Assembly: GCA_977020255.1 (NCBI GenBank)
Contig: CDROCS010000206.1
Coordinates: forward strand, 1 to 64,000
Origin: Obrimoposthia wandeli
Lineage: Eukaryota
Length of the DNA stretch: 64,000 nucleotides
Reading direction: 5' to 3'
In this document: positions 33,223-64,000 of the stretch, piece after piece
Layout: the number at the start of each line of letters is the position of its first letter
How positions within the stretch are numbered: position 1 is the stretch's first letter
Program-made: the position numbers and the translations under genes
The notes under the pieces: generated by a model
Told to the model about the DNA's origin: nothing
Databases searched by the model: none
The model's input: only the letters and a program-made list of their open reading frames with translations

Positions 33223-33949
33223 GGCTTTTGGTTCAAAAATATTTTTCATTTTACTATCAATTTACTATTCATTAAAATTGGTGCATGGATATTTTGAACT
33301 AGGAAGTTTCGAACTGTCCTTTTTAAAATCAGGTCGTTTTGGATTTTCCAGATTTTTGGTAGAGATTGGTGTTCTTTCTAATACGTTGAAAGGGTCAATT
33401 TATAAGAAATAGTTAGTTTAAAAAAAAAGTTTTTTAGAAAATGGTATTCGTTCTAATAGATATTTTTGGATCAATTTACAACAAAAATATTTAAGTCAAT
33501 TTATAAAAAAAAAGATTTTAATAAATTTTAGCCACAACTTGATAGTTAGACAGCCAAACATCTAAGTCTGATTGATTAAATGATTGCTGTAAATATTGTT
33601 AATAAATAAATGATTGAAATGTGAGATTTTGTTTGAATATTTTCTTAGAATCGAACTATTTTTTATAAAATGACCCAAGAAAACTATTAAAATGAATACC
33701 ATTTTTACTAAACTATTTTTAAAAACCAAATTTTTTCTTATAAATTGTATATTCTTATAAAGACCTAATAGAAAGAACCCCAATTTCTACAAAAAAACTA
33801 GAATTCGAAACGTCCTACATTCATTAAAATATGAAAAAATCTTTAAATTTATATAAAATTATAATTTATATAGTTATGTAATCAGAAACTAGAAATATCC
33901 TACTTGTAATAATTTGTTTATGAATAAGTATTTAACATGTATAATATAG

Positions 33950-38640: not shown

Positions 38641-40091
38641 TATCTAATAAATAATTTTTAATTCTGTCTTATATCTTATCGAAATTCTAGCAAATTTCAA
38701 AAGAAAATGTTAAAATAAGTTTAAAAATAGTTCATTATATAAACACTATAAAACATAGAAATAACGAAAATCTCCTTTTATTATTATCTGAATATTTTAT
38801 AGTTAATAAATTTGTAAAATATAACTTTATTTTATAATTTATAACAAATTTATTCTAAATTTGATTAAAAATGTGTTAAAATTTCTACTGTTTGAATCAG
38901 ATTTTTGAAAGAATGCACATCAGTTTTATTAATTACAGAATATTTTTTGTTATACATTTTTAAAATATAATTTCATAAATATTTAAAAAACTATTATGTG
39001 AATAATTAACTGATAATAATAGATATGTATATAAAGTTTGTTTGGTCTTTAAAACAAAATAAAAATAAATTACATTTATTTGATTATCAGACTCTCCTGA
39101 CATCTGGTAAAGAAGTTCCCATGATGTCGTTTGATCCAAATGATAACTGTCTTGATTATTAATAAGTTGATGATTGAGAGAAACATGTCTGGCAATTGAT
39201 ATCTGAGAGAAAATATTAGGAATGAATATTATAGGACATATTTATAATTAACTTACATTATATGTTTGACCAAGATTCACTGAGGAAGCTGTGGATCTGT
39301 TGCAGAGACTACCTATAATGTTGAATAAATTTATAAAGAAATAAAATTACAATTTCCTGACATATTATCAACTGCTATAATATGCTTTTGTACTGGTTGT
39401 TGCTGTTGTTTTCTCTATTGTGAATAACAATAAAAAATAGTAAAGCTTACCATATGCTTTCTTCCATTGACGTGAGACATGAATGAATACTCATTTAACT
39501 CCTTTTTGGCTATAATTATATTTAAACATTTAAAATTATAAATTGAATGACAAATAGTTAGCTTTATATACTTGAGTGTTATGTAATATTTTGTAGAAAA
39601 GAAAGTACGTTCAGTGTGGTGGAGGTGTGGGGATATGTCCTTAAATGGTAAATGTTGTGACCTAAATATTGTGTAAATAAATTCAGTGTAAAGTCGCAGA
39701 AGGACTTTGTCGGAGTGTACTGTCTTGATCATCGCTCGCCGATAGACTTTGGTAGATGGACTTTGTCGGGGTGGGGAGGATTGCCCCCTGTCCTAGAGTC
39801 CTCATATCCACCTACTTAAGTATATTTCTTCATGAATGATATTCGAAGTCTCACCTTAGCAAATCTATCACCTTTCTTAAGATATAGATTTTCACATACA
39901 TACATATACCTTTTTATGTGTTGTGTTGATTGAAAGGTAGTTAAATGATCGTTAAAGTAATTTATAATATATTATGTTGTAGTTTTCTTAACCGAATTCC
40001 TCGCCAAATTCACATACTTGGTGATCATTTTCGCTGTCTTGGATGGGCTAATAGTGACCACTTCAGTCTCCCAAACTTCCACATCATGCAG

Positions 40092-43740: not shown

Positions 43741-45037
43741 AATTGTGCATATTTGTTTGTAAATATTTCAATAAATCAACAATTGCTTACGTAACTATTT
43801 CATTATTACTATTTCCTTATCAGTGATAATCAAGAAATTATTTCAAGATTTAATAGAAGAATAACAAGAATTTATTTATTATCAACAATTTTTTTTAAAA
43901 TAATTTTGTAATTTTCTTTTTTTTATTCTCACCAATTGCAGATTTTGGGATATTATGTACATTAGTATCATGTATCATGTACATTACAAGTAACTGATTG
44001 AATAAATTTCAACTGGTTTTCTCATAATACACATTTTTAAAATTTAAATACTGTAATTGTAATTGGCTATTAACATTTTGTCATTAAACACACAATAAAA
44101 TACGCTGATTTATTTAAAATTGTGTACCAAAATAAAACAGAAACTACAAAGGAACATTTTTGTTACTTTTCTTTTAAAATTATTGAAATAATATTTTTTT
44201 CTAATGTTTTGAATACAGTTATTTTATAACAATTTAAACCCATCAGTGACTTTATAATTATACCAGATTGATATTGTTAAGTTCATCATAACCATGAATT
44301 GAACATCATGTCTTACTATTTGTAAGTCATGCATTCTAGCACTGAACCATCGCAACTTGTAATCTCTCCTGATAACCTAAGTAAAACTTTCTGTATGGGA
44401 AGTTACAATTGTTTGGTAGCTGAATTTGTCAATTTTTTATTCTAACGTATCATTTGTCATCAATTTAAAAGCTTATTTAGAGTCCGAATTTTGAAACCAC
44501 CAAGTATTAGCTTCACAAGAAAATTAGTCGTCACAATCGAGAATTACTTACAAGTTGTACATAATTTCACTGAACCAAAAGCTGTTTAAATCTTGATAAA
44601 ATTATAAATTTTACAAACAATTTCCTCACAAACATCAATTTTCAAAAGAATAAATTAAATCACAATAATTATGCTATTAATCAAAACTTCAAATACCTTA
44701 AAACATTAATTACATAGACAATTTTTCAATGTTAATTATTTTAAATAGCGACGTGGTATTTTTTAAAATTCTTATAAAAAGTTTTTCAAAAAACTATAAT
44801 AAGTCACATAAATAATGTTTCATTATTAATATTGTGCGTGAAATTCTGAATAAGTACCGAAATTCCTTTTTGGTTCGCTCATAAAAGTTTTTTTTGAACT
44901 ATTAAATGAAATTGTAACACGCAATAAGATATTAAAGATATATTTGTGCCAAACATCATTACTCAGCATACTATTTATATTACATCGGATTACACAATAT
45001 ACAACTCAATGCTACATCCAGTGACTCATTGATCCCA

Positions 45038-45969
45038 AGTAGGTAGAAAGATGGAGTCTAAGCCACTTGACCCCCACTGTGTGCGCACACCAAGTTAAAG
45101 GGTGTCACACCATAAGGGTGTCACACCATAAGGGTATATGTTGCCTCACCATAGGGGTGTCTTGCCACACCATAAGGGTCTGGCTCAGAAAGGTTATGAA
45201 GGTTTGAAGGTATGGTCGTGATCGTCTATGGTCGGCCAACATACCCAAGGGGTTGTGGTCATCCATAGATGAAAGGGTCGGGGTCAGTTTTGACTTGAAG
45301 GTTTGAAGGTATGGTCGTGACGGTCTATGGTCGGCCAACATACCCAAGGGGTTGTGGTCGTCCATAGATGAAAGGGTCGGACTCAGTTTTGACTTGAAAC
45401 TTTGAAGGTATAATTAAGGTCAACTATGGTTGGTCATCACATCTAAAGGGTCATGGTCGTCCATAGGTGAAAGGGTCGGGCTAAAAACAAAGTCAAGTTT
45501 AAAATATCAAGGTTTTAGTACATGGTTGTAATCATCTTTAGAAGGTGAATTCAGTCATAAAGTATGACTGTCCATAAATCAAAGGGTCGAGATATAGACC
45601 AAATCAAGTTTTAAATGTCAAGGTTTGAATACATGGTTGTAATCATCTTTAGAAGACGAATTCATCCATATAGGTATGGTCGTCCATAGATGAAGGGTTA
45701 AAAAAAAGTTGGAATTTCATAGTTTCAAGTACATGGTTGTATTCGTCAACATATTACGAGTTTATTCATGTAAAAATTTTATGGTCGTTCACAAGTTAAG
45801 GGTTAGATTTGGCATAAATTAAGAAATTATATAGTATTCAATCAATTATTCTATGTGAAAGTTCACTCTTAAAAGTTAAGGAATGTATTACGTAATCATA
45901 CACACACTATTCTATGTGAAAATTTAGATCAAAGTTTGTTTTTTTTCCTAGGCTTATGCATCTAAAGAA
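45038..45969. repeat. Left TIR of Polinton-1 (~930 bp, with internal ~16-bp, ~99-bp and ~79-bp tandem units)
   Basis: Inverted match to 57065-57545 plus 63410-64000. Confidence 0.95.
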
Positions 45970-46044
45970 TTATGTTAAAATTTATATTAAATCAAAAATA
46001 AATAAGAAAGAAGTCAGAGAATAATACAAAATTAAACACATTTA

Positions 46045-49000
46045 TTATGTAATTTCATAATTTCCATAAGCGCGGCTTCTATTTTTCTCGATCCAATAGC
46101 GTTTGTCATCTGATGAGCTGAGAGCAGTCTTTTGTGTTATGATTGTGTATAGTTGATGATTTATTGTTCCAAAATTCTTTTGTGGTATAGTATATGCATT
46201 ACCGTTTTCATACACGTCTAAAGATGTTTGATGTACAACCGTTGATCCCTTAAGATTTACTCCTTTTGCTTTATTATTTTCAAAGTCATCTTCAAACTTA
46301 AGTGAATAACATTTACAAAGTAAGAAAATCCATTCTTTATACATTCTTCCTTCCGATTCATTTTTAAATAAACCTATTTTACTATTAAATTTATTAGAAT
46401 ATAATGGATCATTCACATTATAATTTGACGTATCTAATAATCCATCTGCAATCATTTTTGGTAACAACTGTTTTCTTAAATTAACGTTTTTACATTCCAA
46501 AAAGAATGAGTCGGTATCACTGGCAACTATATTAATTGAACAATTGAATAAATTACGATATATTTGCAAATCATGATACTGAAGAGTATACATTCGTAAT
46601 TTGCTAAGGTCTAGTACAGCTTGGCCTATATAATTTGGTCGATCGAGACAAATAAAGTCTTTTCTTAATAAAACAGCTATTAAATTATCATGAATTTCAA
46701 TTGTTCGTTGAAACATAGGTTTGCTAGTATATGTAATTAATTTTGTAGAACTAGTGCAGATGCGAAGATTCAACCGTTTCTTAACATTTTCAACGGTCTT
46801 TCCATACAAACTAACATTTTTAAGTTTATAAAAATCTTTGTCACATTTATTCGTTGCTTGTGATCTCATTTATGAATTATATTCTATATATTCTGCGAAT
46901 ATCTTAGCCTGAGAGAATTTTACTGCTCGATGAATAATTGTTACCACTGCTCCTAAACTAACATACATCTGCAATAATCTCCAATGAATAACATAATGAC
47001 TTTTTGGCGAATGCGTCATTAAAAGTTTTTCAACTTTTTTACCAGGTGAACATTTCTTTTCTGGAGCTATAGGAAGATCATCTAAAAAGTCATGAAGGTT
47101 TTCTGGTATTACCAAGTCTACTTCCATAACATAACCATATTCAATATGTTCCATGTTCACATTTTTTATTTCATGCAATATTTCGTTTAATTTTATATCA
47201 TCAAGAATCCATTCAAAATCTCCTTTTGGTAAAGGTTGATTAAGAGCCCATCCATATAAATTATTAACATCTATATATAAAAGACTTGTTTCTTCATCAG
47301 CGACTACATGATGCTTATTGACAAATGTCATTCCTCCTCGTATATCCGAAGAAATCATGTTGTACGTTTCAGGATCCTGCATCAGTTCAACCTTATGTTT
47401 TAACATTTTTAGAGCACTTGCCCAACTCAACCCAGGAATGCTAAAAAAGTTAAGTGGTTCTAAACCATCTTCACTGAGAGCTTTTCTTCTGAATGTTTGA
47501 AACACGTCAGCTAATAAATATACGTCAGTCTTTAAGTAAACTAACATATAATTCAACATATTTCTACAATTGGTTATTTTCCAAACATCTTGTGCTTTTT
47601 GATATTCAGTGTCTGTGATTTTATCATTCCATTTTACTGGTAAACTTAACTTATTCTGGAGGACATTTAATGATGTAGCAAAATCATATGGGAATATTCC
47701 TTTGCCATCAATAAGTTTAGATGGAAAAACTGATCTTGTTAATGGAATAGTTGGTAATTTACCGGCTAAATTTTCTAAAGATGATTGCAAAAATTGCAAA
47801 GAATCTATAAATTTCAGAGTTATTTTACCTAATCTTACAATCATGGCTTGAAACTTTTCCGTTGATTGTGGTATAATATTTATATCCCAGTCAGTAAATT
47901 TAATCAATGCATGTTTTAAAATATGATGTAAATCATAACCTCTGAGATTATGAAACACAATAGGTAAAGTTGGACGAAGTTTTCTTGATAAATTACATTC
48001 ATTGCATGCAGGACCTAGATACTTGCCAGTAAAGTGATCATGATCTTTAACATATTTTTCAGATGATTCGTGACATAAATAACATTCATCGGCATTGCTA
48101 AATGTATGAATCTCTGCATTTGTTAAGGGAATCATTACGTTTTTAAGAGCATCTAAATACCATGGCAAAACCTTTTCTTTAGCCAAGTTCTCTATTGACT
48201 GAAGAAATTTAACTATGCAGTCATCACCAACATTATGTTGATACTGGGTTTCAATTTCATCTGTACTCATAAATAACATACCAGATGCGACAGGCATATG
48301 CTTTTGATGATAACTCTCATCTGGTACTAATACAGATTCAAAATCAGCGTAAACGACATATTTCGGTGATATAGTTTTTGACCAATCGTTGAATTTAACG
48401 TACTTATTCTTAGGCATAGTATACATTGTAGTGCTTTCTTGATTATAGTCACATAAAACTTTATGCTTTTCTAATGACAAATCGGTTTTGAAACCATGTA
48501 AACACTTTTCACACCATTTTCTGCTAATTCTAGTCGTTCCAGTTCGAATATTTAATAGCCGGTTAAGACAACTTATTCCTATATAATGAAACCGTTCCTT
48601 GGATTCTAGTAACAATAAATTAACTATAGTTCCTTCCTTCATTTTTAATTTGTATGCAACATCGATATAAGGATTCTTGATAACATCAGTTTTTGATTCT
48701 TTTTCACTTACCTCGTTGAATATGAATACATTTATTATTATACCAGGATTTTGCCGTTCAAATTTTGATATATTTGATATTTTCATAGGCATGTCTTCGG
48801 AATTATATACAAAATCATTTAAAAATCTTTCATAGTTGCTTGGTCTATTTCTATGTGATTCTATTTCATTATATTTAAGTATTGACAATATTGCATAAAT
48901 AAAGCAAAGATTATCAGAGTTTAGAATATTTATGACTGCTTTAGATTTTGTAAGAGAATTTGGTGATTTAATATATGAATGACCTGACAATGCACAAATT

Positions 49001-49737
49001 TGACTATATTTAGTAGCAATAAATGCATATTCAAGTATATTCATCAATTTCCAACCACTACCTTTTTCTGAATATTCTTCAACTTTATTTTCCATTGTAT
49101 CTTCCATTTCTGAAATTATAGCATGTGAAAAAATCATTGCTTGATGCGAAGCATACCATTCTTTAGTTTCTCCATCATTCTTTTCAAATCTCATTCTAAT
49201 GATGTATTGTATCTTTGCATTTCCCATTAATTGCACTATTCTTTCTAGTTCGTTTAATAATGAAACTGGAACCTTAAGACTTACAAGATTGAGATGATCT
49301 ACTTTCATGGATATCATTGAATAACTATTTTCTAACGATGTTTTAGTCTGTATATTGTCATTTATTTTACGTTTTCGTGACGGAGTAGGAGCTGAAATTA
49401 CTATGTTTGATGGTTCATTAATTATATCAGTTCTTTTGCTTAAAGCCGGTACTTTAAATAATGTTTTCTTACTATCATTTTTATATTCTTTTAAATGACT
49501 AACATGTCGACTATAAAATAAGTTGTAATCAACATTTTCAGTGCTTAAACATTGTGGACATATGAAATAATTTATCCTTTTGTATGAATAACGATAATAA
49601 TTTTTCATGATATCATGACAGACTTGAGGATTAAAATGTGTTTCCGATGAACAATAATTTGAATAAGTTTTACATATACTCATCTGATGATATGATTGGT
49701 ATTGAGACATTGATTGATTTGATTGGACTTGAGACAT
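46045..49737 (-). CDS. polB: Protein-primed family B DNA polymerase (pPolB), one in-frame TAA at 46870-46872
   Basis: EKGSGWKL and NSDNLCF in the N-terminal region; exonuclease YADFES and FHNLRGYDLHHI; endonuclease VII-like insert CYLC..DHDHFTGKYLGPACNECNL; polymerase motifs YIDVNNLYG, KLKNVSLYGK and SDTDS. The 955-aa and 274-aa ORFs are in the same frame, separated by one stop. Confidence 0.97.
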
Positions 49738-49806
49738 TTTGTTCTAAAATAAAAAAAAAAATATATATATATATATAAATACAATAATTTAATTATTTTA
49801 CTTACA

Positions 49807-50337
49807 ATGTTAACAAATATTAATTATAAAGGAATTTGCTTAGATGATGTATCCAAATTAAAATTTCGAACACGACCAGAACAATACGTTTATAAAGCCA
49901 AAGATTATACAATACTTATTTTTAGAAATAAGAAATGCAGGATTATGGGATGTAAGGTACCTATTAAAAATATTTCTTACCCTTTAAGAATAAATATACT
50001 TGGTATTCAATCAATTACGGTATGTGAAAATTTAGATCAAAGTATCAATCTATTTAAATTATGGAATGTGTTACGTAATACATGTTCATTTGACCCTGAG
50101 GTTTTCCCAGGCTTAAGATTAAATATTTTCAATCCATTGTGTGTAAATATTTTAGGTCTTAGAAATTTAGATTTTCAAAATCAAGTTAACGATATCATGA
50201 CATACATTAAAAAAAATTATATAAATACGAAACAATTTCTAATTAAATCATTCAATTTTAAATGTCTTATAAAGCCGTTCAAAAGTATTACGAGTATGAT
50301 ATGTTCTTCTTGGCATCTGCATGGATTCATCCAATGA
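49807..50337 (+). CDS. TATA-box-binding-protein-like (TBP fold) ORF inside Polinton-1
   Basis: TILIFRNKKCRIMGCK vs TBP TALIFSSGKMVCTGAK; IQSITVCENLDQSINLFKL vs IQNMVGSCDVKFPIRLEGL; SFDPEVFPGLRL vs SYEPELFPGLIY. The last strand (LIFxSGKVV) is missing; the tail after ~aa 135 may be read-through. Confidence 0.8.
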   Translation: MLTNINYKGICLDDVSKLKFRTRPEQYVYKAKDYTILIFRNKKCRIMGCKVPIKNISYPLRINILGIQSITVCENLDQSINLFKLWNVLRNTCSFDPEVFPGLRLNIFNPLCVNILGLRNLDFQNQVNDIMTYIKKNYINTKQFLIKSFNFKCLIKPFKSITSMICSSWHLHGFIQ

Positions 50338-50648
50338 CTATGCCAGTGACATTATCGAAAACTTCGTACAATTACCGAGTCTCTGATTTTGACGACAAAG
50401 ACATTCAACAATTCAATGAAGTCGTCAAATATTTGAAAATTGACATTGAACTTGAGAATGAGGGTATATTTATGCGCGGAGATAAGTGCAAATTTTATGA
50501 TTGTTCCGGAACAAAGATTTCGGATATTCAAGAAGATGGAAGAAGTTGGATGCTCGAAATAAAAATTCTCGGATATAAAATAAATAAAAAGAATGAAACA
50601 ACTCTCATCTGGAGGATTCACACAGCGACCGAATATTTTGATGTTTAA
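50262..50648 (+). CDS. Polinton-1 gene X, unknown function (128 aa)
   Basis: PVTLSKTSYNY..SD....DIQQFN and LEIKILGYKI...LIWRI align with the gene X copies at 27560-29295 and 61428-61955. Confidence 0.75.
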   Translation: MSYKAVQKYYEYDMFFLASAWIHPMTMPVTLSKTSYNYRVSDFDDKDIQQFNEVVKYLKIDIELENEGIFMRGDKCKFYDCSGTKISDIQEDGRSWMLEIKILGYKINKKNETTLIWRIHTATEYFDV

Positions 50649-50728
50649 TAAATATTTAATAAAATGTTGTATTGTTATAAACATTTACTTATTCTGATAT
50701 ATTTATTTTATATTAATATTTATATATA

Positions 50729-51358
50729 ATGTTATTAACAAACAATTCGACTTTTCAAGTAGTAGGACCAAGTGGTAGTGGAAAAACTTTATTTGTTTGT
50801 AAATTATTAAATTCAAAAATGTTTAAAAATAAATTTAATAAAATATATTGGCATCAAGTTGGTGACGGAGAAGCCGGTTTAACAAACCAAGAATTTAATA
50901 AAATAAAAAACATTAAGATTATTAACGGTTTTGATGAAAATTGGACGACAAGACTCGTAAAAGGTGATGTAATTGTTATTGATGACTTATATCAAGAGGC
51001 TAACAAAGAATCTGATTTTAATGATTTATTTACAAAAATTGCAAGACATAGAGAAGTTACTGTAATTTTTATAACCCAAAATTTATTTCATCAAGGAGGA
51101 AATCATCGTACTCGTAATCTTAATGTACATTATTTGATTTTATTCAAAAATCCTAGAGATCAAACAGTGATAGATTTTATTGCTCGTCAAGCATTTCCTC
51201 ATAACAAGAGTTATTTAATTGATGCGTTTCATGATGCTACATCTTTACCTCATGGTTATTTATTTTTAAATTTTACTCAATCATGTCCTGATGATTTAAG
51301 AATTGTTACTGATATATTTAACCGTAATGGTATTACAGTCTATAAACAAAATAAATAA
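50729..51358 (+). CDS. A32/FtsK-like genome packaging ATPase
   Basis: Walker A VVGPSGSGKT, Walker B IVIDD, then ARH..V..IFITQNLF and RTRNLNVHYLILFKNPRD; intact 209 aa. Confidence 0.95.
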   Translation: MLLTNNSTFQVVGPSGSGKTLFVCKLLNSKMFKNKFNKIYWHQVGDGEAGLTNQEFNKIKNIKIINGFDENWTTRLVKGDVIVIDDLYQEANKESDFNDLFTKIARHREVTVIFITQNLFHQGGNHRTRNLNVHYLILFKNPRDQTVIDFIARQAFPHNKSYLIDAFHDATSLPHGYLFLNFTQSCPDDLRIVTDIFNRNGITVYKQNK

Positions 51359-51378: not shown

Positions 51379-51789
51379 ATGAATTTTAAAAAGAGTATTC
51401 TTAAACATAGTAAAAGGACAGATAAAGATGAAGTTAAAAAATTAATAAACACTGTATTATATGATCGTAATAATATTGAATTTAAAAAAAGTTTACCTTA
51501 TTTTAAAACCTTAATTGACGTATCAAAAACGAATAAAATGAAAATGTTGAAATCATTTCCAATTTATGTAGTTGATGATTTAATAAAAATTTTAAATAAA
51601 ATAATTTATGGTAAAATTAAACCTGATCCTAATATTTTAAAATATAAAAATTCATTAATAAATTTAGCAAATTCACGTGGTAAAATTAATAAAAGAAACA
51701 TTATTTACAATCAAAATGGCGGATTCCTATTGGCCATACTGCCCGCTATAGCATCAGTAATAGCTGGTCTTATAACTTCAAGAAGTTAG
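51379..51789 (+). CDS. Conserved small Polinton protein with a C-terminal Q-x-GG-F-L amphipathic helix (PW-type)
   Basis: Basic 136-aa ORF ending NQNGGFLLAILPAIASVIAGLIT, next to the ATPase; the xGG motif resembles adenain cleavage sites (inference). Confidence 0.7.
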   Translation: MNFKKSILKHSKRTDKDEVKKLINTVLYDRNNIEFKKSLPYFKTLIDVSKTNKMKMLKSFPIYVVDDLIKILNKIIYGKIKPDPNILKYKNSLINLANSRGKINKRNIIYNQNGGFLLAILPAIASVIAGLITSRS

Positions 51790-52131: not shown

Positions 52132-52429
52132 TTTGAGTCTTGATTTATTTAAATTAAAGAAAAATAACAAAATAGTAAATTATATATCCTATTATGTAAT
52201 TTCAATTATTGATAATAATATAATTATCTCAATTGTTACAATTGAATTGTGCCTATTTAATTATGATAGTTGCCTTAATAACGAAAATTATAATAATATT
52301 AAATAATTACATTCTTTCGTTTTATACAAACATATAAACAGATTAAAATATATTTAACTTTTATAATAATGGGGATAAACAATACAAAGTTGTCTAACAT
52401 ATTTATAATTTTTAATTCTTCATGCTGCA

Positions 52430-53454
52430 ATGGAAAAGATTTGGAACAATCCAGAAGATCCAGAGGGTATACAGGGTTAGAAAAATTGACAAAAAGAGTC
52501 AAACAATCAAAAACAAACACACAAAAATGGTTAAGAAATGAATTATCATATAGTTTGAATAAACCTTTAAGACGTAAATTTCCTACTAGATCATATAAAA
52601 CTAATGGTATTAATTCCTTATGACAGATGGATTTAATGGAAATGATACCTTATTCTTCAGTAAATAACGGATTCAAGTATATTTTAACTTGTATTGATGT
52701 ATTTAGTCGTTTTGCAAGGGCAGTTGGTATTAAATCAAAATCGGGTATTGATTTATTACATGCAATAGAATCTTTAATTGTTGATGATGTACCAGTAAAT
52801 ATCCAAACCGATGAAGGTAAAGAATTTTTTAATTCACATGTTAAGAAATTATTTAAAACTGAAAATATCAATCATTATTCAGTATATTCTCAATATAAAG
52901 CTGCAGTAGTTGAAAGATTTAATAGAACGTTAAGAGAACGGTTAAAGAAATATTTTACTAAACAAGGTAATAAGAAATGGGTGAATGTATTACCAAAAAT
53001 TATTTATGCTTATAATAATTCTAAACATAGAGGTTTAGATGGTTTAAAACCTGTAGATGTAAATAATAAAAATGAATTTGATATTTTGTTGAAACAAAAT
53101 CCAAAAGAAAAGAAAGTTAAATCTAAATATAAAATTGATGATTATGTTCGAATATCAAAAATAAGTACAAGTCCATTTATTAAAAATTTTAATCAAAATT
53201 GGAGTGATGAGGTTTTTCAAATTCATGATATTAATTATAAACAAAATCCAATAATGTATATTTTAAAAGATATTGATAACGTCATCATCAAAGGAAAATT
53301 TTATAAACAAGAGTTACAATTAATTGATAAACCTAAACTATATCGAATACAAGAAATTTTAGAAACTAAAGGTCGTGGTAAGAATAAACAATATTACGTA
53401 AACTGGCACGGATACTCTGAACCTTCTTGGATATTTGCTTCTCAAATTGAATAA
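52430..53454 (+). CDS. Retroviral-like (DDE) integrase with a C-terminal chromodomain-like tail; one frameshift (~52460) and one TGA (52621-52623)
   Basis: MEKIWNNPEDP(fs)GYTG..., L*QMDL (normally LWQxDL), LTCIDVFSR, QTDEGKEF, VVERFNRTL and YYVNWHGYSEPSWI. Confidence 0.95.
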
Positions 53455-54467
53455 TGTCAAAATATATTATTTTACCTAGTAATAGTTGTCCAAGTACTCA
53501 ACCTAACAATACAGCCAATCAATTTACTGTAGATTGGGAAAACTCTCTAAATTTAGATGGTGAATGGGAGGTTGCCTTGACTGAATTTGTATTTAATTAT
53601 ACTCCTTTAACAATACAAACTAATTCAAAAATACTTTATAAAACAGAAAAGATAGAAATGAAAACTTTCGATGTATCTTTTGCAATTTTAAATGGATTAA
53701 TTTTTAATAATTTAAATAATGTTTTCAATTTCAAAATTACAAAGAATCAAAAATTAGAAATAAGTACAATTAACAGTATTCATCGAATGTTGTTAAAATT
53801 CGAATCTTTAGAAAAATCAAAAATTATAGGTTTTAATGAAATACAAAAAATTTCTAGTCATGTTATAACAAGTGATGAAATTGTTGACATAAATAAAAAT
53901 ATTCATGCTAAAATGAGAATTACAATTTATTCTTTAGCTGAATATGAATACGAAATAAAATTTAATCAAAATTATTTGATACAAGATAGTTCTTCATTAT
54001 GTAATATTATAGCCAGTAAATGTAATGCGATTTTTAAAAGCTGTAATATAGATTCAAACGGATTATTTGATATTTTAATAAAGAAAAATGTAAAATCAGT
54101 TTTATTTGACGAAAAACTTGCATCTTTATTAGGTTTAAATAATGTTTTCTTTGAGAAACGAATTAAAGGTTTTCAAGAACCAACACTTTCTAGCTCATAT
54201 AATCAAATGTATATTTATACTAGTTTAACAGATTCTGTCTTAGTAGGATCTGATTATGTTCCACTGTTAAAGTCTATTTGGTTAAAATCATTAAAATATC
54301 GATATGGAGATGTAGTAAATGTTAAAATTGATAATCCAATGTACTTGAAAATGAGAGATTCAAGTATTAATAGAATCGAGGTAAATATACGTGATGATTC
54401 TGGTAATTTAATTCCATTTTCATATGGAGCAAAAACTAGTTTAACTCTTCATTTACGTAAAGTATAA
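53454..54467 (+). CDS. Minor capsid (penton-like, single jelly-roll) protein
   Basis: ILPSNS..QPNNTANQFTV..ENSLNLDGEWEVALTE at the N-terminus and MYIYTSL..PLLKSI..IEVNIRDDSG.LIPF at the C-terminus; intact 337 aa. Confidence 0.9.
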   Translation: MSKYIILPSNSCPSTQPNNTANQFTVDWENSLNLDGEWEVALTEFVFNYTPLTIQTNSKILYKTEKIEMKTFDVSFAILNGLIFNNLNNVFNFKITKNQKLEISTINSIHRMLLKFESLEKSKIIGFNEIQKISSHVITSDEIVDINKNIHAKMRITIYSLAEYEYEIKFNQNYLIQDSSSLCNIIASKCNAIFKSCNIDSNGLFDILIKKNVKSVLFDEKLASLLGLNNVFFEKRIKGFQEPTLSSSYNQMYIYTSLTDSVLVGSDYVPLLKSIWLKSLKYRYGDVVNVKIDNPMYLKMRDSSINRIEVNIRDDSGNLIPFSYGAKTSLTLHLRKV

Positions 54468-54504
54468 ACAATATAAATATATTTAAAATATAAAAATATA
54501 AAAA

Positions 54505-54905
54505 ATGAATACATCAATTATAAAATTTTATAGCAAAAGTCAACAGGGCGGTGAATTTCCCTATTTCATTGGTAAGCAATATGGATCTGGTTGGTTTCAA
54601 ACTATTTCTAGATTAGCTATTCCATTTATTAAAAAAGCTGGTTTATCAGCAGCTACAAGTGCTGCCAATGCAATTGGCGAAACGGTAGGAACTGCGTTAA
54701 CAAATCCAAAAACTTAATTTCATCTCTCAAAGAAAATACAATCAAAGAAGTCAAAACTTTGATTCCAAAATTAAAAAATAATGCTGTTGAGAGTTTAAAT
54801 AAAGTCGCAAATTGTGTTGAACAAAATGGAAAGGGTCTTAAACGTAAAAGAAATCATTTAAATAGTATAAACAAACGTCTTAAAGGTACTATTTTCCAAA
54901 AATGA
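54505..54905 (+). CDS. PZ-like conserved protein, one frameshift at ~54715
   Basis: QQGGEFPYFIGKQYGSGWFQTISRLAIP; the shifted frame continues to a TGA overlapping the capsid ATG. Confidence 0.8.
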
Positions 54906-56121
54906 CTAGTATAAAATCTGAATTGTGTATTTTCGATAGACCACTACCTCAAGTAGTGATTGAAAATTCAAGTTTTGAAGAAATATTTCCAATCAATTCA
55001 ATTACTGGTGGAAATTTAAATGACATAGAATTTAATATTCATGCATCTGAAGAAGATTATCTGGATTTGAATGATACTTTGTTAAATATTAAATTAAAAG
55101 TTGTAAATGAAGATGGTACTGATTTAATGAAAGATAACGATGTAACTCCAGAGAATTACATGTTTCAAACTTTGTTTAGAGATGTTATTCCAACACTTAA
55201 TAATGTAAAGGTTGAAGGAGGAAATGGAACGTATACTCATAAGGCTATATTCGATACTCTTTTGAATTTTAGTAGTGATACCAAGTATACTAACCTTGAA
55301 TGTTCCGGGTATGATGATGATGCAAAAAAACGTAAACAATGGATTAGTGAATCTAAAATATTTTCATTGTGTAATTCAATTAGATTAGATTTCTTTGATC
55401 AACCAAAATATTTGATTCCAGGGATTAATGTTCATTTGAGATTTATGAGAAATCAGCATAATCTTTCGCTCTATTCAGAAACTTCAAAACCAATTATTCA
55501 AATTCTAGATGCTAGATTGTATGTTAGAAGAGTAAAAGTTGATTCTTCAGTAATGATTGGACATCAGTTAGGTTTGTGAAGTCAGAATGCAGTTTACCCA
55601 ATTAGAAAAACTCAGTTAGTAACATATTCAATTCCTCAGGGTTCTTTGGAACTTAATAAAGATCAAATATTCGGAGACTATCGTTTACCCAAGTTCATTT
55701 TGATTGCTTTCAAAGATACACCTCAGGGTGGTAAGGAATACAAAGTTAAATCTTCTACGTTCAATACATTTAATGTTTCAACAATATCATTAGCTAGAAA
55801 TACAGATTATCGAGAAACTTATAATTTAGATAATAACAATTTTTCATTAGCATATATGCAGTCAATTATTCGAAATATGAATATTTTAGATAAAAACTTG
55901 AATAATGGTATCAGATTTTCTGATTTTAAATCAGGAAGTTCGATTTTCACTTTTATATTAGCACCAGATTTTGATATAAACACTACTCAAGTGCCTAAAA
56001 CTGGTAATTTAAGACTTGAAATTAGATTTAATTCTCCTTTGGTTGTTCCAACAATGTTTGGATTTACGGAATATTTGATTCCGAAATTCAGATTACGAAA
56101 AATAAAACTGTGATTGTATGA
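54902..56121 (+). CDS. Major capsid protein (double jelly-roll); one TGA (55577-55579) and one -1 frameshift (~56053)
   Basis: KSELCIFDRPLPQ, IRLDFFDQPKYLIPG, QNAVYP, LPKFILI, GNLRLEIRF, and restored end VWIYGIFDSEIQITKNKTVIV*. Confidence 0.95.
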
Positions 56122-56194
56122 AGTAAGCTTATTGTATATTATATTCTTTATTTAAATTAGTACTTTAGAAATTTATAAATCCGGAAAAATATTT

Positions 56195-56494
56195 TTGAAT
56201 AACAAATTTAATGGAGTATATTCATTGGATAAAATTCCATCATTAAAACCCGGAGGCTACATTATCAATACTCATACTTCAAATTTACCAGGCGAACATT
56301 GGATAGCAATATTTGTTGACAGATTCGAGATTCGAGTGTTTGATCCTTTTGGATTCTATTGTCCTTCAAAGTTGGTGTCTACACTTGAAAAAGAAAACAT
56401 TCCACTCTACTATAATCGAGTTAAATGTCAGAATCCATTAACTAAAAACTGCGGACCTCTGAGTCTTTTATGGTTGAAACTTCAACACAAATAA
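56195..56494 (+). CDS. Adenain-like cysteine protease
   Basis: INTHTSNLPGEHWIA, VFDP, CQNPLTKNCG; the start codon is uncertain (TTG in the track). Confidence 0.92.
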   Translation: MNNKFNGVYSLDKIPSLKPGGYIINTHTSNLPGEHWIAIFVDRFEIRVFDPFGFYCPSKLVSTLEKENIPLYYNRVKCQNPLTKNCGPLSLLWLKLQHK

Positions 56495-56545
56495 TTTTAA
56501 GTATAAACAAATATATCAATATAGTATTTCATTTTATTTTTTCAA

Positions 56546-56998
56546 ATGGCTTTTATTGATTTAGAATGTTTTATTGATAATAATGGAGAATATATTCCAA
56601 AGGAATTATGTATAATGTATGTGAATGATATGACTTGTCCATTTCATTACGTGTTTAAAAATCAAATACCATGGAGTAGTTTATCATTTACAGTTAAAAG
56701 AAAAAATCTATATTTGATAAATCATCATCATCAGTTATCCTGGTTTGAAGGTGAAAGCTCTGATATTCATATTGATGATGTTGAAACAATATTCTATGTT
56801 ATGGATTCTATTGATGGAAAGAAAATTAATTTAGTGAAACGAATGTTTCCAAATTTGAGAATTGTGAATTATAATAAAAGTTTCAAAAATTTAAAGAAAA
56901 TGCCAAAAAATATTCGATGTCCGTTTAGAAAACACGGAAAACATTCGGCTTATTTGAAATGTTTTTCTCTATGTATTGATTATGTAAATTGTATATAA
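56546..56998 (+). CDS. Conserved Polinton accessory ORF with a DEDD-exonuclease-like N-terminal D-x-E motif
   Basis: MAFIDLECF..PKELC and C-terminal CPFRKH..YLKC; homologue MAFIDFEYF..IKDLC/CPFREH..YLKC at 38237-38621. The nuclease assignment is inference. Confidence 0.6.
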   Translation: MAFIDLECFIDNNGEYIPKELCIMYVNDMTCPFHYVFKNQIPWSSLSFTVKRKNLYLINHHHQLSWFEGESSDIHIDDVETIFYVMDSIDGKKINLVKRMFPNLRIVNYNKSFKNLKKMPKNIRCPFRKHGKHSAYLKCFSLCIDYVNCI

Positions 56999-57064
56999 AT
57001 ATATTTATTAAGGATATTTTATTTTAATATATAATTTATGTTATTTAAATAAATTTTACCATAT

Positions 57065-57545
57065 TTCTTTAGATGCATAAGCCTAGGAAAAAAAAACTTT
57101 GATCTAAATTTTCACATAGAATAGTGTGTGTGTATGATTACGTAATACATTCCTTAACTGATAAGAGTGAACTTAAGCTTAAATTTTCACATAGAATAGT
57201 GTGTGTGTTATTAAAAACCACATTCCTTAACTGATAAGAAGGAACTTTAGCCTAAATTTTCACATAGAATAGTGTGTGTATGATTACGTCATACATTCCT
57301 TAACTGATAAGAGTGAACTTTCACATATAATAATTGTTTGAATACTATATAATTTCTTAATTTATGCCAAATCTGACCCTTAACTTGTGGACGACCATAA
57401 AATTTTTACATGAATAAACTCGTAATATGTTGACGAATACAACCATGTACTTGAAACTATGAAATTCCAACTTTTTTTAACCCTTCATCTATGGACGACC
57501 ATACCTATATGGATGAATTTGACTTCTAAAGATGATTACAACCAT
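57065..57545. repeat. Right TIR of Polinton-1, inner part
   Basis: Reverse complement of ~45633-45969 with extra ~79-bp units; ends at TSD AACCAT (57540-57545). Confidence 0.95.
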
Positions 57546-57879
57546 AGTAGTGGGATGTGAGGTCTCAAGCACAAAGTAGGTCAAGGTCAACCCCCCCCCT
57601 GCTGAAGTGATTTTTTTTTATGTGAGGTCTCAAGCACAAAGTAGGTCAAGGTCAAACCCCCCTGTTTTGTTTTACTGAAGTGATTTTTGAATTTTTGTTT
57701 TACTGAAGTTATTTTTTGAAATTTGAATTTTTGTTTTACTAAACTGATTTTTGAAATTTGAATTTTTGATTATTTTTTTTTTAAAAACTTGTGTTTTTAA
57801 AATAATTTGTAGGTTATTATTTCTCATGTGAATTTTATAATATTCATATAGGTCAACAAATTATTTAATATTTATTTTC

Positions 57880-58040
57880 GAAAAAGTTTAAACTTTATTT
57901 TTCAAAAAGTTGTAATTTTATTTTTCGAAAAGTTGTAATTTCATTTTTCAAAAAGTTGTAATTTCATTTTTCGAAAAGTTGTAATTTCATTTTTCGAAAA
58001 GTTGTAATTTCATTTTTCGAAAAGTTGAATTTTTCAAAAA
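57880..58040. repeat. ~19-bp tandem array (tttttcgaaaagttgtaat-like) in the nested element
   Basis: About 7-8 near-identical consecutive units. Confidence 0.9.
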
Positions 58041-58799
58041 GTTGATATTGAAATTAATTTTTCATGTTTGAAGGTGCAAGTTTGCTTTACATTATTTGAA
58101 AAAAGTATAGTAAGTGGATGTACATCCTATTTAACTCCAATAAGTTATATAAGTTAAATAATAGATATTGTTTGTATTTTCTGGAGTTTAAACTCACGGA
58201 GTTTACGAACTCCCGGAAGACTAACCTTCCGTTGATCGCATACACTTGATAACAAGGAAGATCGTATTTCACTCTCCAGCATGACTAAATGCCGAGGAAG
58301 CCAAGGAAAAATAAACAATATCTTATATATTACTTGAATAACTTACTGAAGTCTACATTGTAAATATAACTGAACCCTCTTAATTCTAATCCTAAAATAA
58401 TATATGTATGGAATGTAGGATGGGAAAAGGGATGTGAGGGTAAATCAAAAAGAAAATAGAGAACCAGAGATTAACAGAGAACCAGCCCTCTTAGGGGTTA
58501 TCACATATGGGGCCCCTTGAAAAAATAATAGATAGGGAAATAGGGAATGCTGATCTATCTCCTGAAGATCTATCTCCCGATGAAATCAGTCCCGATGAAT
58601 TCACTCTCGATGAAGTCACTTCTGATGACGCTGCCAGGAAATGATAATTATTCCCAAGAAGTCACTCCTTTGTAAAAAATATACTCCCCTAACCCAATAA
58701 TTGATCCCAAAAAATCGATCCTTTGAGAGAAATATGCGTCCCTGACCCCAATTTCCCAATAATTGTTGAGTATGAACACACTAAAGATGATAAAGTTAC

Positions 58800-58950
58800 T
58801 CCCAATAAATGTTAATTATTCCCAATGAATGTTAATTATTCCCAATAAATGTTAATTATTCCCAAGAAATGATAATTATTCCCAATAAATGTTAATTGTT
58901 CCCAAAAAGTAATAAGTGTTCCCAATAAATGTTAATTATTCCCAAGAAGG
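58800..58950. repeat. 20-bp tandem array (cccaataaatgttaattatt) in the nested element
   Basis: About 7 consecutive units at 20-bp spacing from 58801. Confidence 0.9.
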
Positions 58951-61427
58951 CACTCCTTTATGAAAAATATGTTCCCCTAACCCTCAACCCAAATAAATAA
59001 TTAACATACCTAAAAATATATCCATAATTCTTCTATAGCAGAGCTACCTGAAGTGGGCATATCACTTCTCTTGCTCGTAGATGCTAAACTAAATCTTCTA
59101 TAAATAGTTTGCAGGCTACCTTTTGAATATCTGAACAATTATATATATATATATTTCTGTACCTACCTCGTCTGCCTTCCATTCATCTTCGCAGATAATT
59201 TCTTCTGTATTTCATCATAGTGAACAATTTGAGGCTAAAGATATATATTACAAAATTATCAATAAAAAATATACCTTTTTAGAATATTCCTTTTTCCATA
59301 AATATATTTTAATAAAAGCGGCATAGAATATGTTGATGCTATTAAATTAAAACAATTCTTTATGCAATTTAGACCATGAAAATATTTAAAATTACTAAAG
59401 AAATGATAAATATTTTTTGGAATTACTTATTAATTTTCATTCAAGTTTTACTTAAGTTTAATTAATATGTAAATATCTATGTATGTAAACTAATAATTAA
59501 TATAGGTTCTCCAGTAAATAAGGAGTACATAGGGAGAATTTACGTGGTATTGGGTAGTTAATAATTAATGATTATTGGTGTACACAGTCTATTTTGTTAT
59601 TCATTTAGGGAAAATTTACATGGTCTTAGGAAATAAATGTTCAAAGTATAATGATATTAATTTTAATAATATTTTCATGGTCTAAGGAAATAAATGTTCT
59701 AAATTTGATATTTTGATGTATACAGTATAATTTGTTATTCATTTATGGTAAATTTACATGGTCTCTGAATTTCAATGTTCAATAATTTACTAATTTGGTG
59801 TACACAGAGTAATTTGATGGTCATTTACGTGGTCTAAGGAAATAAATGTTCAATAACTTGCTATTATTGGTGTACGCAGACTATTTTTATATTAATTTGG
59901 TGTACATAGAGTATTATGAGATTAATTTGGTATATATTTACATGGTCTTTGGGTTCAATGTTGGACCATTCTATAATATTTGTGTACTCAGAGTATTAAT
60001 TTGGGAAATATTACACGGTCTTAGGAAAATTATCGATAGTGTACGCCGATAATTTACGTGGTCTTTAGATAATTAATGTCGCATAAGAAGAGAATATTGA
60101 TGTACGTACACTATTATGGAAATTTTCTATGGTTTTAGGAAATTATTGAAATTATGGATATTTACTGAATGTTTAGGAAATTATTGATATTATGGATATT
60201 TTCTATGGTTTTAGGAAATTATTGATGTACGCAGACTATTATGATATAATTTAGGGATATTTACTGAATGTTTAGGAAATTTTTGGTGTATACTAACTAT
60301 TATGAGAATAATATTAATTAAGTTACGGTGTCTTTCAGATAGTTAATATTGGTGTACAGACTATCATGAAATTAAGTTTCAATATTTTTCAAACAGTTAA
60401 TAACAATTAATTTACGATGTCTTTCAGATAGTTAGCAATATTAGTGTGGAGACTTTAATGAAATTATTTTACAATGTCTTTCAGATAGTTAATAATTTGG
60501 AAATATTGGTGTACAGACTATCATATTGACTTATATCCAGTTGACTTTGAACGAATATAGTTTAAATAATATCAATTAAGCAAAGTGGAACGGTATTCTA
60601 TGCATTCACAGTACAGTGAGAATTCTGTTACCGTTTCTAAAGCTAGTCTTAGAGCCAGAGGCCGAAGGTAAAATAGAGCTAGTCAGAACCTGATGGTGAA
60701 GCCATATAATAATAATAGGGAACACTCACATCAATATCTTAACTCGAAGCTTCATAAAATATAAGGCAGAATAATAAATAATTAGAGAATATCAATGTAC
60801 GCTGAATAATTTAGGTGATTAATATTGAATAATTAAGGAATATTGGTGTACAGACAAAGTTATGCTGTCTTTCAGACATATTTAATAATTCAGGAATACG
60901 TTGGTGTACGTAGACTAATATGATATTCATAGAGGTTCTCAGGTAATTTACGGATATCGATGTACGTTGACTAATAAGTATAGTAATTTTGATTCAATTA
61001 GGGGAAATATCATTTATAGAGCAACTTTATGGGATATTTTATAAAAACTGATAGGTCGAATTCCCAGATTTGACCGTGAAAACTCATCTCTTAATACTTT
61101 TTGGATATCGATGTTTTATTAGTATTTTAGGGTGACGGGGGAATATATGTTAGTGTTAATGGGAAATATAAGAAACCTTATCATCATCCTATTGAGACAA
61201 AGTATAATGGTTTCAATCGTCGAGTTGCTCTGTCGAGTTGCTCGAAAGCAATTGAAGAAGCAGAGTTTGATATTTTTCGTCATTGTTCATATTTCCCCGA
61301 ACCTGTTTGAATATTCACTTGAATATACCCTCATCTGATTGGTCAATCACTTTAAATCCCTAAATTAATAAAGACCATCTATCCCTGAAGCATTAAAAAT
61401 ATGTGGTAGAATAGAAATTTTATTATT

Positions 61428-61955
61428 TTACGACATAATAGTTCCTTCTGTAAATTTCCAAATTGGTTTTAAACATCCATCTCGTTTTATCTTGTATCCT
61501 TGAATTGAAATTGAGATATAGCATTTTTCTTGGTTAGCTTGATAGTATTCAGTAAAAATCCTTTCATCTGCTCGCATCATCATTGAATTAGTATGGATCT
61601 TATACTCAGTACCTGATTCATGTAAGATATGATTGAGTTGTTCAATATCTTGTTCACTAATATCATTGATTATATAATCGAATTTTGACTTTGATAACTT
61701 GACAGAATCGGATAATAGATATATTACAGGACTCTTGAGAAAATTCATCTCCCATCCCAAATATTGATAACTTGGTTGATATTCGGGTTTCTCTAGTTCC
61801 TTCAATACAATTTCTGGTTTCAAGTTAATATTCGATACATCGGGAAATAGTTGTTTGCTAATATTCTTCTTGTTTCTTGCTAATGTTGGAGCAGCTTTTT
61901 CAGGGATGTTCTTGGAGATTTTAATATTTGTCATCGTTGATATATGACTAAACAT
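61428..61955 (-). CDS. Gene X homologue (175 aa) in the nested element
   Basis: Intact ORF; MNFLKSPV..VKLSKSKFDYII and ISIQGYKIKRDGCLKPIWKFTEG match Polinton-2 gene X more closely than Polinton-1 gene X. Confidence 0.85.
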   Translation of the reverse strand: MFSHISTMTNIKISKNIPEKAAPTLARNKKNISKQLFPDVSNINLKPEIVLKELEKPEYQPSYQYLGWEMNFLKSPVIYLLSDSVKLSKSKFDYIINDISEQDIEQLNHILHESGTEYKIHTNSMMMRADERIFTEYYQANQEKCYISISIQGYKIKRDGCLKPIWKFTEGTIMS

Positions 61956-62859
61956 CTTTAGTTTATATCAAACCTAGTATCTGATTGGTTATCTCACTAC
62001 ATTTATGGGTCCTGGATGAGCTCTGGTGTCAGAGACTAGTGTCGGAGAAGAGATTGATTCCAGTGAAGAGGATTCTGTTGAATAAGAAATATCTTCCCCC
62101 AAACCCTAATTATCTCTAACATATTTCCATACTATGTTCCCCCAAACCCTAATTCAATCATCAAATGTATTCATATTTGTTAAAATTATTCATATAATCG
62201 TGGAAATTATTCATATAATCGTCAAAATGATTCATATTTGTCAAAATACTAATATAATTTATTACCCATGTTAACCCAACCTTAATTTCTCCATATAATC
62301 ATGAAAAGTATGAATATTGTATAGCTGAAATGACCGTGGAATGACCCACTTTCAATAACTTATTTATTGATCCGTATATTGAAAAGAATAATAGATTTCA
62401 TGTTAGTCAAAGTTGATCACTCCTTTATTACAAATGACTCTAAGTTATTTCCATAATATACTCACCTCTTTCCCCTAATCTCAATAATTTAGTACCGTAA
62501 CCCGATTTTTTCTCTATAATATGTTTCCCTAACCCTAATCCTAATCCTCAATTTCCTCTATCATATTAACCCTAACTCAGAAAATATATGTTTTTAAAAG
62601 CATTCAATCATATCACTTCTATAGAATTCAATGATGTCAGTATACGGAAACCTGTCCGAGAACACATTGATAGAATAATCAACAAAGACAGGAAGCCTAA
62701 AGTCCATCAAAAAGAGAATCTTCGGCGTATAGACACCAGTTCCGGACTCGAGATTCATAGACTCATAGGTCCAATCCAAATTCAGTCTTGGAGCTTGTTA
62801 TTGAGTCAAAATAACTTCATCGAAGAAAGAACAATCTGAAGATCAGCAAGTCACTGCGG

Positions 62860-63110
62860 GGAATTAATATGGATTAACATATTTTGATTTTCAATCGAAT
62901 GATTGAATTCTGAAATTAATATGGATTAACATATTTGAATTTTAATCGAGTGATTGAGTCCTGTAATTAATAAAGAATAACATATTTTGATTAATATTGA
63001 GTGATTGAGTTCTAGAATTAATATGGATTAACATATTTTGACTAAAGTTGAGTTATTGAGTTCTGGATTTAATAAAGATTAACACATTTTGATTAATATC
63101 AAGTGATTGA
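62860..63110. repeat. ~50-bp subterminal tandem array in the nested element
   Basis: attaatatggattaacatattttga...gtgattgagttct repeated about 5 times. Confidence 0.85.
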
Positions 63111-63409
63111 GTTCTAGTGTTATAGTATGTTTTGAAATTTGCGGGCATAAAAATTGATGTGTTTAAACAAAAACATCTAATTTTAGAGTAAAATCCGCCT
63201 AAAACAGAAGTATTATAGTATAAAGTGACATAAATATAAATTTAACCCTCAAAAATCATGTGTACTATAACAAAATTTGACCTACTTTTCACATTGACCT
63301 TAGAAAAATTAAATATTATAATATGTATTTAAAATTTCCGCCCAAAAAAAAAAAAAATCTCGGTTTTCGCTAGGGGGGGGGTGGCCGGAACTGGACACAT
63401 CTATCTACT

Positions 63410-64000
63410 AACCATGTATTCAAACTTTGACATTTAAAACTTGATTTGGTCTATATCCCGACCCCTTCATATATGACCGACCATACTTTATGACTGAATT
63501 CACATTCTAAAGATGATTCCAACCATGTACTAAAACCTTGATATTTTAAACTTGACTTTGTTTTTAGCCCGACCCTTTCACCTTAGGACGACCACAACCC
63601 TTTAGATGTGATGGCCAACCATAGTTGACCTTAATTATACCTTCAAAGTTTCAAGTCAAAACTGACCTTGACCCTTTGAATTATGGACGTCCATGACCCT
63701 TTAGATGTGTTGGTCAACCATAGTTGACCTTAATTATACCTTCAAAGTTTCAAGTCAAAACTGAGTCCGACCCTTTGACCTATGGACGACCACAACCCTT
63801 TAGATGTGATGGCCAACCATAGTTGACCTTAATTATACCTTCAAAGTTTCAAGTCAAAACTGAGTCCGACCCTTTGATTTATGGACGACCACAACCCCTT
63901 GGGTATGTTGGCCGACCATAGGCGGTCATGACCATACCTTCAAACCTTCATAACCTTTCTGAGCCAGACCCTTATGGTGTGGCAAGACACCCCTATGGTG
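63410..64000. repeat. Right TIR of Polinton-1, outer part (runs off the window)
   Basis: Reverse complement of ~45147-45638, with more ~99-bp units than the left TIR. Confidence 0.95.

Follow-up and report, generated by a model that had tools for sequence, protein, structure and literature searches.

Polintons (Mavericks), treated as adintoviruses by Starrett 2021 (PMC8502044), are the described group to which the element reported here belongs; it carries the hallmarks of the group: terminal inverted repeats (TIRs), a 6-bp target-site duplication (TSD), a protein-primed DNA polymerase B (pPolB), an rve integrase, an A32 ATPase, adenain and a double-jelly-roll (DJR) major capsid protein (MCP). 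One figure of that paper (Fig. 5) labels a "TBP" gene in MELD viruses with an adintovirus-like PolB; the extracted text of its Fig. S2 adintovirus maps carries no TBP label, and the text passages covered do not analyse the gene or its residues, nor do they deal with a promoter word. Term look-ups found no TBP/TATA text in the accessible parts of PMC11131425, PMC11161782, 10.64898/2026.06.19.733378, 10.64898/2026.10.13.758929, 10.1101/2023.08.22.554363 and 10.1101/2025.02.07.637071. In the literature covered, only the Starrett legend label links TBP to Polintons, and subscription papers, Repbase, figures and supplements may name the gene; an earlier, sequence-only reading of this locus, which knew of no such description, holds apart from that label. 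Some polintoviruses encode a VLTF3-like late transcription factor, a precedent for a Polinton-type element with its own putative late factor, which belongs to an unrelated protein family without a TBP fold (PMC11131425).

Viral TBPs are better described elsewhere. The vTBP of beta- and gammaherpesviruses (KSHV ORF24) is a TBP mimic that serves late genes through a noncanonical TATA-like word and host Pol II; it is a 752-aa multidomain protein of a six-protein complex, has all four intercalating phenylalanines and lacks the TFIIB-contact Glu, with a predicted clash with TFIIB (PMC12529657). In the TBP-like proteins of Nucleocytoviricota the fold is again two-lobed and the regulatory surface of the N-lobe has diverged; a viral TFIIB is the usual partner, as it is for most viral TBPs, and the stirrup acids are poorly conserved, at about 40% (PMC7221094). 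The gene described here specifies, in contrast, a lone minimal domain with an invariant TFIIB-contact Glu, in an element without a TFIIB match.

The element and its TBP-like gene

The window is the whole stretch of DNA analysed, 64,000 nt of an Obrimoposthia wandeli contig. A Polinton spans 45038 to contig position 64169, its sibling copies being about 13 kb long, and its gene order is pPolB (minus strand), TBP-like gene, orf128, A32 ATPase, orf136, rve integrase, putative minor capsid, orf134, DJR MCP, adenain and orf150. Its features are as follows.

45032..45037, no strand: left TSD ATCCCA, 6 bp, repeated past the right end (contig position 64169)
45038..46003, no strand: left TIR, about 1 kb, beginning AGTAGGTAG
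46045..49737, minus strand: pPolB with endonuclease VII (HNH) domain; in-frame stop near 46870
49762..49781, plus strand: canonical TATAWAWR TATA box between pPolB and the TBP-like gene, its last start 33 nt upstream of the latter's ATG
49807..50337, plus strand: TBP-like gene (mini-TBP), ORF of 176 aa
50148..50149, plus strand: junction of a 24-nt deletion relative to siblings, placed to within a few nt
50262..50648, plus strand: orf128, predicted T7 gp2.5/Enc34-type single-stranded DNA-binding protein (SSB)
50729..51358, plus strand: A32-like packaging ATPase, PF04665 above cut-off
51379..51789, plus strand: orf136, conserved Polinton gene
52369..53454, plus strand: rve integrase with chromodomain (rve 40.1 bits); 5' part out of frame, start approximate
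53454..54467, plus strand: putative minor capsid protein
54505..54905, plus strand: orf134, conserved small gene, frameshifted here
54902..56113, plus strand: DJR MCP (Atlas 0.98, PF21738 clusters); stop at 55579, later frameshift
56156..56494, plus strand: adenain-like protease, no ATG-started ORF here
56546..56998, plus strand: orf150, conserved gene
57044..64000, no strand: right TIR, split by an insertion (57550-63405) and ending 169 nt beyond the window

This copy is decayed, with stops in pPolB and MCP and frameshifts in the integrase, orf134 and MCP; 6-bp TSDs also occur in 3 of 3 other inspected copies. The putative label of 53454..54467 was given chiefly from its position, no tool having matched it, the MCP profile matched neither PDB sequences nor PHROGs, and the protease reaches Peptidase_C5 only at E 0.003, below cut-off. 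PF03175 was matched on sibling polymerases, and the endonuclease VII domain of the window pPolB, the one point of comparison, resembles the pPolB2 description (10.1101/2023.08.22.554363). For orf128, a frequent neighbour of the TBP-like gene, Atlas returned no usable match, and its model has T7-type SSB structures as the top four of 48,161 chains (Z 7.0-7.5, middling); this predicted SSB fold rules it out as a TFIIB/TFIIA-like partner. The TFIIB profile PF00382 matched none of 11 element proteins or 19 window ORFs, and the element yielded no gene for TFIIB or for an RNA polymerase.

Further Polinton material surrounds these genes. The 5.85-kb insertion in the right TIR is rich in tandem repeats and carries an SSB paralogue (61428-61955, minus strand), and a small internally deleted Polinton at 26970-33222, with TIRs, TSD GGCTTT and capsid and protease remnants, has a hAT-like ORF inserted at 28025-29095 that bears a Spin-doc zinc finger, and shows no TBP-family match. 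In one window-family copy (L126-L127, G000:C144) the polymerase gene is only 76% identical, against 97% elsewhere, an apparent polymerase swap between families.

The sequence-only reading had recognized a TBP-like ORF starting right after a gap shared divergently with pPolB, and both observations are borne out. The start at 49807 lies 69 nt from that of pPolB at 49737, and the ORF scores 25.7 bits against Pfam PF00352 (cut-off 22.9), with 45.8 bits for the natural sibling copy L003; the window ORF also matches an archaeal TBP at E 3e-6 (phmmer). From its sequence, the TATA box at 49762..49781 would be a promoter for host TBP. A search of the own genome (1.35 Gb) matched the gene in 150 of 150 scored candidates at 96-100% identity, a lower bound on copy number, and 17 of the 150 have stops. 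The final TBP strand, whose absence had been put down to a possible in-frame deletion in this copy, is indeed removed by such a deletion: 24 nt are the sole difference between the window gene and L003. Of the 29 further copies fetched, 28 retain the strand in a product of 184 aa, and the remaining one has a different deletion of 9 nt. Since the 24 nt include the last intercalating Phe, lost together with its beta-hairpin to leave two Phe, the window mini-TBP is probably non-functional. This stretch has been lost repeatedly, and one deleted form has spread. Four copies (L234-L237) share another in-frame deletion of 24 nt, situated a little upstream of the one in the window, and L002 has one of 9 nt. 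Beyond residue ~150, the protein ends in a non-conserved, family-specific, low-confidence tail of ~30 residues that overlaps the next gene.

Predicted fold and conserved residues

The AF2 model of L003 (pLDDT 80.8; residues 158-184 below 50) retrieves TBP from the PDB at E 1.7e-8, and every listed one of its 44 Foldseek matches at E <= 0.001 contains TBP. Residues 1-147 superpose on both lobes of human TBP 164-337 (VIA-align Z 12.9, rmsd 2.9), the next unrelated fold reaching Z 6.3; viral TBP-like models (BFVD) match L003 too, with scores no better than those of cellular TBP. As modelled, the 49807-50337 family is a member of the TBP superfamily with a two-lobed saddle. The claim that both half-repeats are recognizable stands for the LIF and EVF phenylalanines, which align with canonical intercalating Phe, and for the match of both lobes, but the N-terminal half is partial: no helix of at least 4 residues precedes residue 82, leaving an N-lobe of strands only, and the first Phe is missing.

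For the residue analysis, 63 near-full-length family sequences (L003 and 62 of 159, picked by eye) were aligned with nine canonical TBPs, on whose motifs the yeast labels were placed where we presume they belong. The labels themselves come from PMC12529657 Table 1 and PMC1636458. In family numbering, F39, F100, F116, E98, M47 and N114 are invariant (63/63), R45 is found in 62, and D/E96 and N4 in 61 each. In yeast numbering, F116, F190, F207 and E188 are kept in all 63 sequences, N69 in 61, P191 in 56 and the acid two residues before E188 in 61, so that the acidic C-lobe TFIIB stirrup appears to be kept; three of the four intercalating Phe are invariant, and there is no conserved aromatic at F99. 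The N-lobe helix H2 is lost in the core clade (about 14 residues missing in the alignment), and a more distant subgroup (L042, P0112, P0120) retains part of it. Its basic patch is described as the site for TFIIA, TAF1, Brf1/2 and Mot1 (PMC7221094, section 12).

Compared with cellular TBP (PF00352; PDB 7egb_P, 1cdw, 1ytb), to which it is about 22% identical, the mini-TBP shares the two-lobed saddle, the conserved F116, F190, F207, N69 and P191, the E188 stirrup and intact C-lobe helices, but its core is about 145-150 aa instead of about 180, H1 and H2 are absent in the core clade, and the F99 equivalent is gone. With the acidic stirrup but neither the four Phe nor H2, it would lie, by alignment, outside canonical TBP. 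Eight canonical sites are replaced by other conserved residues: V71N (55/63), V122R (62/63), T124M (63/63), N159S (56/63), V161T (49/63), I194R (50/63), V203C (53/63) and L205N (63/63). Changes at I194, V203 and L205 re-specify yeast TBP (PMC1636458), and V122, T124, V161 and L205 are polar in KSHV ORF24 as in the mini-TBP (PMC12529657 Table 1). Because the DNA face is conserved but altered, a different DNA target is suggested.

Family, spread and selection

At E <= 1e-30 a profile search of 1.84 billion representatives returned 53 proteins; at 1e-10 there were 725, with ordinary TBPs in the tail. A second family search gave 113 matches, none virus-named, and a cluster look-up of 10 family proteins showed nothing beyond automatic "TBP" names. 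Family proteins are mostly 144-176 aa long and single-domain. Among 80 metagenome loci, Polinton genes stand beside the match in 11, namely 10 of the 12 best-scoring loci and L057; the other two of the 12 are 1-kb contigs, and the remaining 67 loci, which are unannotated, show no Polinton genes. At the most distant metagenome Polinton locus, L042, pPolB, ATPase, integrase and MCP are all present, with identities of 27-41%. Several further families in the same genome (G000) carry the TBP-like gene at 40-57% identity and in differing positions; it adjoins pPolB and SSB in the window family and in a second one. Searching this genome with the L042 ATPase recovered only a TBP-carrying family (12/12 loci). 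Viral contig scans with TBP, ATPase and MCP found no relative, hence no independent TBP-less Polintons there, and the genome contig scan gave one 3-kb contig.

The gene is under purifying selection, to judge from dN/dS of 0.13-0.19 in 24/24 cross-family pairs, which amount to one contrast between two families 78% alike, and from pS > pN in 36/36 pairs among nine distant ORFs. A quick IQ-TREE of 86 selected rows sets 43 family rows and one unlabelled row apart from all cellular TBPs, the host's included, on a long branch with SH-aLRT 99; the tree contains no labelled giant-virus TBP. The earlier description of a captured, highly diverged factor is upheld as to divergence, to which selection can be added, but the long branch of this quick tree speaks against a recent capture from the host. 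That reading had also staked its proposal on a TBP fold and on the gene's presence beyond one copy; the fold is matched, and the gene occurs in at least 150 copies and in other families, under selection.

In sister families, a 38-71-nt GT..AG stretch interrupts the gene at the same Gly codon and is absent from intronless relatives, among them the window's own family. Its carriers are L145, L150, L153, L154, L156, L177, L222 and L231 of G000 and the metagenome locus L040, all in phase 1. The stretch reads as a spliceosomal intron, which points to nuclear transcription by host Pol II. Because gene callers meet this intron, many database entries begin at a downstream Met.

TBP and TFIIB genes are also present in the host itself. 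Two of its TBP genes are of canonical type and lie back to back, and two others are divergent paralogues that have no introns and lack some of the Phe (G000:C238, L130 and L131; C60, L133; C1092, L134; C968, L132 and L135). Several BRF-like copies occur in the same genome, and pieces of an Alpha-type Polinton lie between exons of a BRF-like TFIIB-family gene at G000:C1245 (L163, L166) and C5487 (L167).

A putative promoter word before morphogenesis and integrase genes

We compared the 110 nt before each locatable start in 20 element stretches, near-duplicates removed. The 6-mer ATAAAC, mostly within TATAAACA, stands before 52/55 genes of the ATPase, integrase, capsid, protease, orf134, orf136 and orf150 classes, in most cases at a distance of 30-45 nt, against 3/28 TBP-like, SSB and pPolB genes and 0/17 TBP-like genes, a grouping made after the aligned upstream regions had been viewed. 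Canonical TATAWAWR runs the opposite way (6/55 versus 17/28), and most of the TBP-like genes have such an ordinary TATA box. Fisher P values for such counts overstate the evidence, because the elements are related and the counts not independent. ATAAAC is the top-ranked 6-mer in the upstream windows; shuffles give a mean of 6.1 and a maximum of 12 in 200, and the reverse strand gives 2/55. The base before it is T in 39, C in 8, A in 3 and G in 2 cases, and the base after it is A in 47/52. The next base after TATAAA is C in 42/50 cases versus 8/91 in host flank. The window element carries the word at these places.

50676..50683, plus strand: TATAAACA, 52 nt before the ATPase start
51341..51348, plus strand: TATAAACA, within the end of the ATPase coding sequence, 37 nt upstream of orf136
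52333..52340, plus strand: TATAAACA, before the integrase gene
53383..53390, plus strand: variant AATAAACA, in the integrase coding end, 70 nt before the putative minor capsid gene
54463..54470, plus strand: TATAAACA, 41 nt before orf134
54866..54873, plus strand: TATAAACA, 35 nt before the MCP gene, inside orf134
56502..56509, plus strand: TATAAACA, 43 nt before orf150

No ATAAAC lies close upstream of the window protease, the nearest being at 55976. In the window at 33900-38650, a decayed integrase-capsid-protease-orf150 module of another Polinton family also has ATAAAC before some genes.

Counted by junction, the word stands at 55/70 junctions into a late gene, a class assigned from gene function, versus 15/41 other gene ends; 13/33 gene ends without a known next gene have it as well. 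It is found at 0/9 orf150 ends but 8/8 protease-orf150 junctions. In the integrase and minor-capsid genes the sites are still within the coding sequence, 65-106 nt from its end, and separate AATAAA signals adjoin the word before the ATPase. Inside coding sequence the word biases codon choice, with Ile-Asn written as ATA AAC in 13/35 cases near ORF ends versus 14/112 elsewhere. The split is imperfect: the SSB gene of two related families is preceded by TATATAAACC, one pPolB has the word, and the protease is mostly without it (2/10 MCP-protease junctions). Two later-fetched elements have the word before ATPase, orf136, MCP, orf134 and orf150, before SSB and before only 1/3 proteases; it is absent before their TBP-like gene. 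No initiator-like signal was seen downstream of the word.

The gap at 49740-49806 and the AT-rich ends, which had been put forward as targets of the factor, do not fit: ATAAAC is missing from the gap, whose TATA box is of the ordinary kind, and each TIR contributes a single GAATAAACTC site, which does not match. Because the conserved word precedes the morphogenesis and integrase genes, the likely target is there and not in the gap or TIRs. As a TBP-less control, an Alpha-type Polinton of the same genome (G000:C2184 63275-78332, L212-L214; 15 kb, 410-nt TIRs, no TBP-family match, integrase fused to a PLA2-like domain) has the word before 0/15 ORFs, and two partial relatives have it before 0/17 and 2/11, the latter both internal; this control is one distant lineage, no close TBP-less relative having been found. 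A PF03175 search gave mostly window-type polymerase, and the control lineage came from a different fragment.

Discussion

We favor, with somewhat better than even confidence, the reading that the Polinton mini-TBP is a late-gene promoter factor, made early, that reads TATAAACA and recruits host TFIIB and Pol II. Host TBP and Pol II would read the ordinary TATA boxes of the TBP-like gene, pPolB and SSB, and so express early genes. The mini-TBP would then bind (T/C)ATAAACA some 30-45 nt upstream of the genes for ATPase, capsid, integrase and accessory proteins. Its C-lobe, with the Phe pair kept, would kink the upstream half of the word, and its rebuilt N-lobe (first Phe lost; V71N, V122R, T124M) would read the downstream half with the C. 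This orientation is suggested by yeast TBP, in which the C-lobe contacts the second base pair, which would leave the C-containing half to the rebuilt N-lobe. The acidic stirrup, which the protein has kept, would recruit host TFIIB, hence Pol II, and without helix H2 the protein may escape control by TFIIA, TAF1, Brf1 and Mot1. The early suggestion that such a factor redirects Pol II to element promoters is upheld as its likely role. By analogy only, the mini-TBP would work like herpesvirus vTBP, sharing a distinct TATA-like word at promoters called late from gene function; it is not a member of that family, and it has neither the N-terminal domain by which vTBP binds Pol II nor the additional DNA-binding domain at the C-terminus, nor the partner activators.

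As a counterpoint, PDB 1qn3 is, by its title, a crystal structure of wild-type TBP on a C(-25) variant of the TATA box, so that host TBP might read the word unaided. In that case the word could be a weak TATA variant for host TBP, and the mini-TBP could act as a decoy, tying up TFIIB or sitting on host TATA boxes and so lowering host transcription, an account to which the invariant acidic stirrup and the loss of one Phe and both N-lobe helices, which could weaken DNA binding, also lend themselves. We consider it unlikely: it leaves unexplained the strict C, the free first base, the absence of the word before 17/17 TBP-like genes and the new invariant DNA-face residues, and a general inhibitor would probably be costly to a family present in at least 150 copies. 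Distinctly less credible is that the mini-TBP binds TATAAACA but represses, blocking host TBP at late promoters and keeping the integrated element quiet. Motif and residue data fit this equally, and the lost TFIIA surface could yield a nonproductive complex, but the TFIIB-contact Glu is kept in 63/63 sequences, and the promoter of the TBP-like gene, being without the word, gives no sign of a feedback loop.

The word might instead belong to the upstream gene, as a poly(A)-signal variant (NATAAA) unrelated to a mini-TBP with another job. TATAAA, CATAAA and GATAAA are known poly(A) variants, and many sites do lie near stop codons, including the 13/33 ends that lack a known next gene. To our knowledge, however, a fixed C is not a poly(A) feature, and the sites 65-106 nt inside coding ends, the contrast between orf150 ends and protease-orf150 junctions, and the separate AATAAA signals before the ATPase make this, too, a poor prospect. 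We give slightly less credit still to the idea that the protein bends DNA at the AT-rich ends or in the divergent gap to aid replication, integration or packaging; the neighbourhood of pPolB and SSB in two families would suit such a role, but gene position differs among families, the TIRs hold one nonmatching site each, and bending would not need a conserved TFIIB stirrup. That the gene is an incidental, unselected capture of a host TBP fragment could be read from the deleted window copy and from the independent deletions of other copies in the same stretch, but it is effectively refuted by the dN/dS values, the six invariant columns in 63 sequences, the many families and metagenome Polintons that carry the gene, and the long branch from host TBP.

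There is about an even chance that 13-kb animal Polintons of a widespread lineage run a two-stage, virus-like transcription programme in which a single protein is the switch, namely the smallest TBP-type factor, re-specified to TATAAACA, insulated from host regulators and plugged into host TFIIB. Such a system would be an orthogonal TBP-promoter pair that evolved independently of herpesvirus vTBP, and direct evidence for a regulated late, virion-building phase in these "transposons". As a natural structure-function experiment, the mini-TBP has dropped its regulatory N-lobe surface and one Phe while selection stays. Together with its 8-bp word, it is testable with one small protein and short oligos; if orthogonal to host TBP, the two would form a compact Pol II promoter-factor pair. 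The word is also usable to annotate gene starts in these elements. How elements with few genes time the expression of capsid and integrase bears on whether Polintons behave as viruses.
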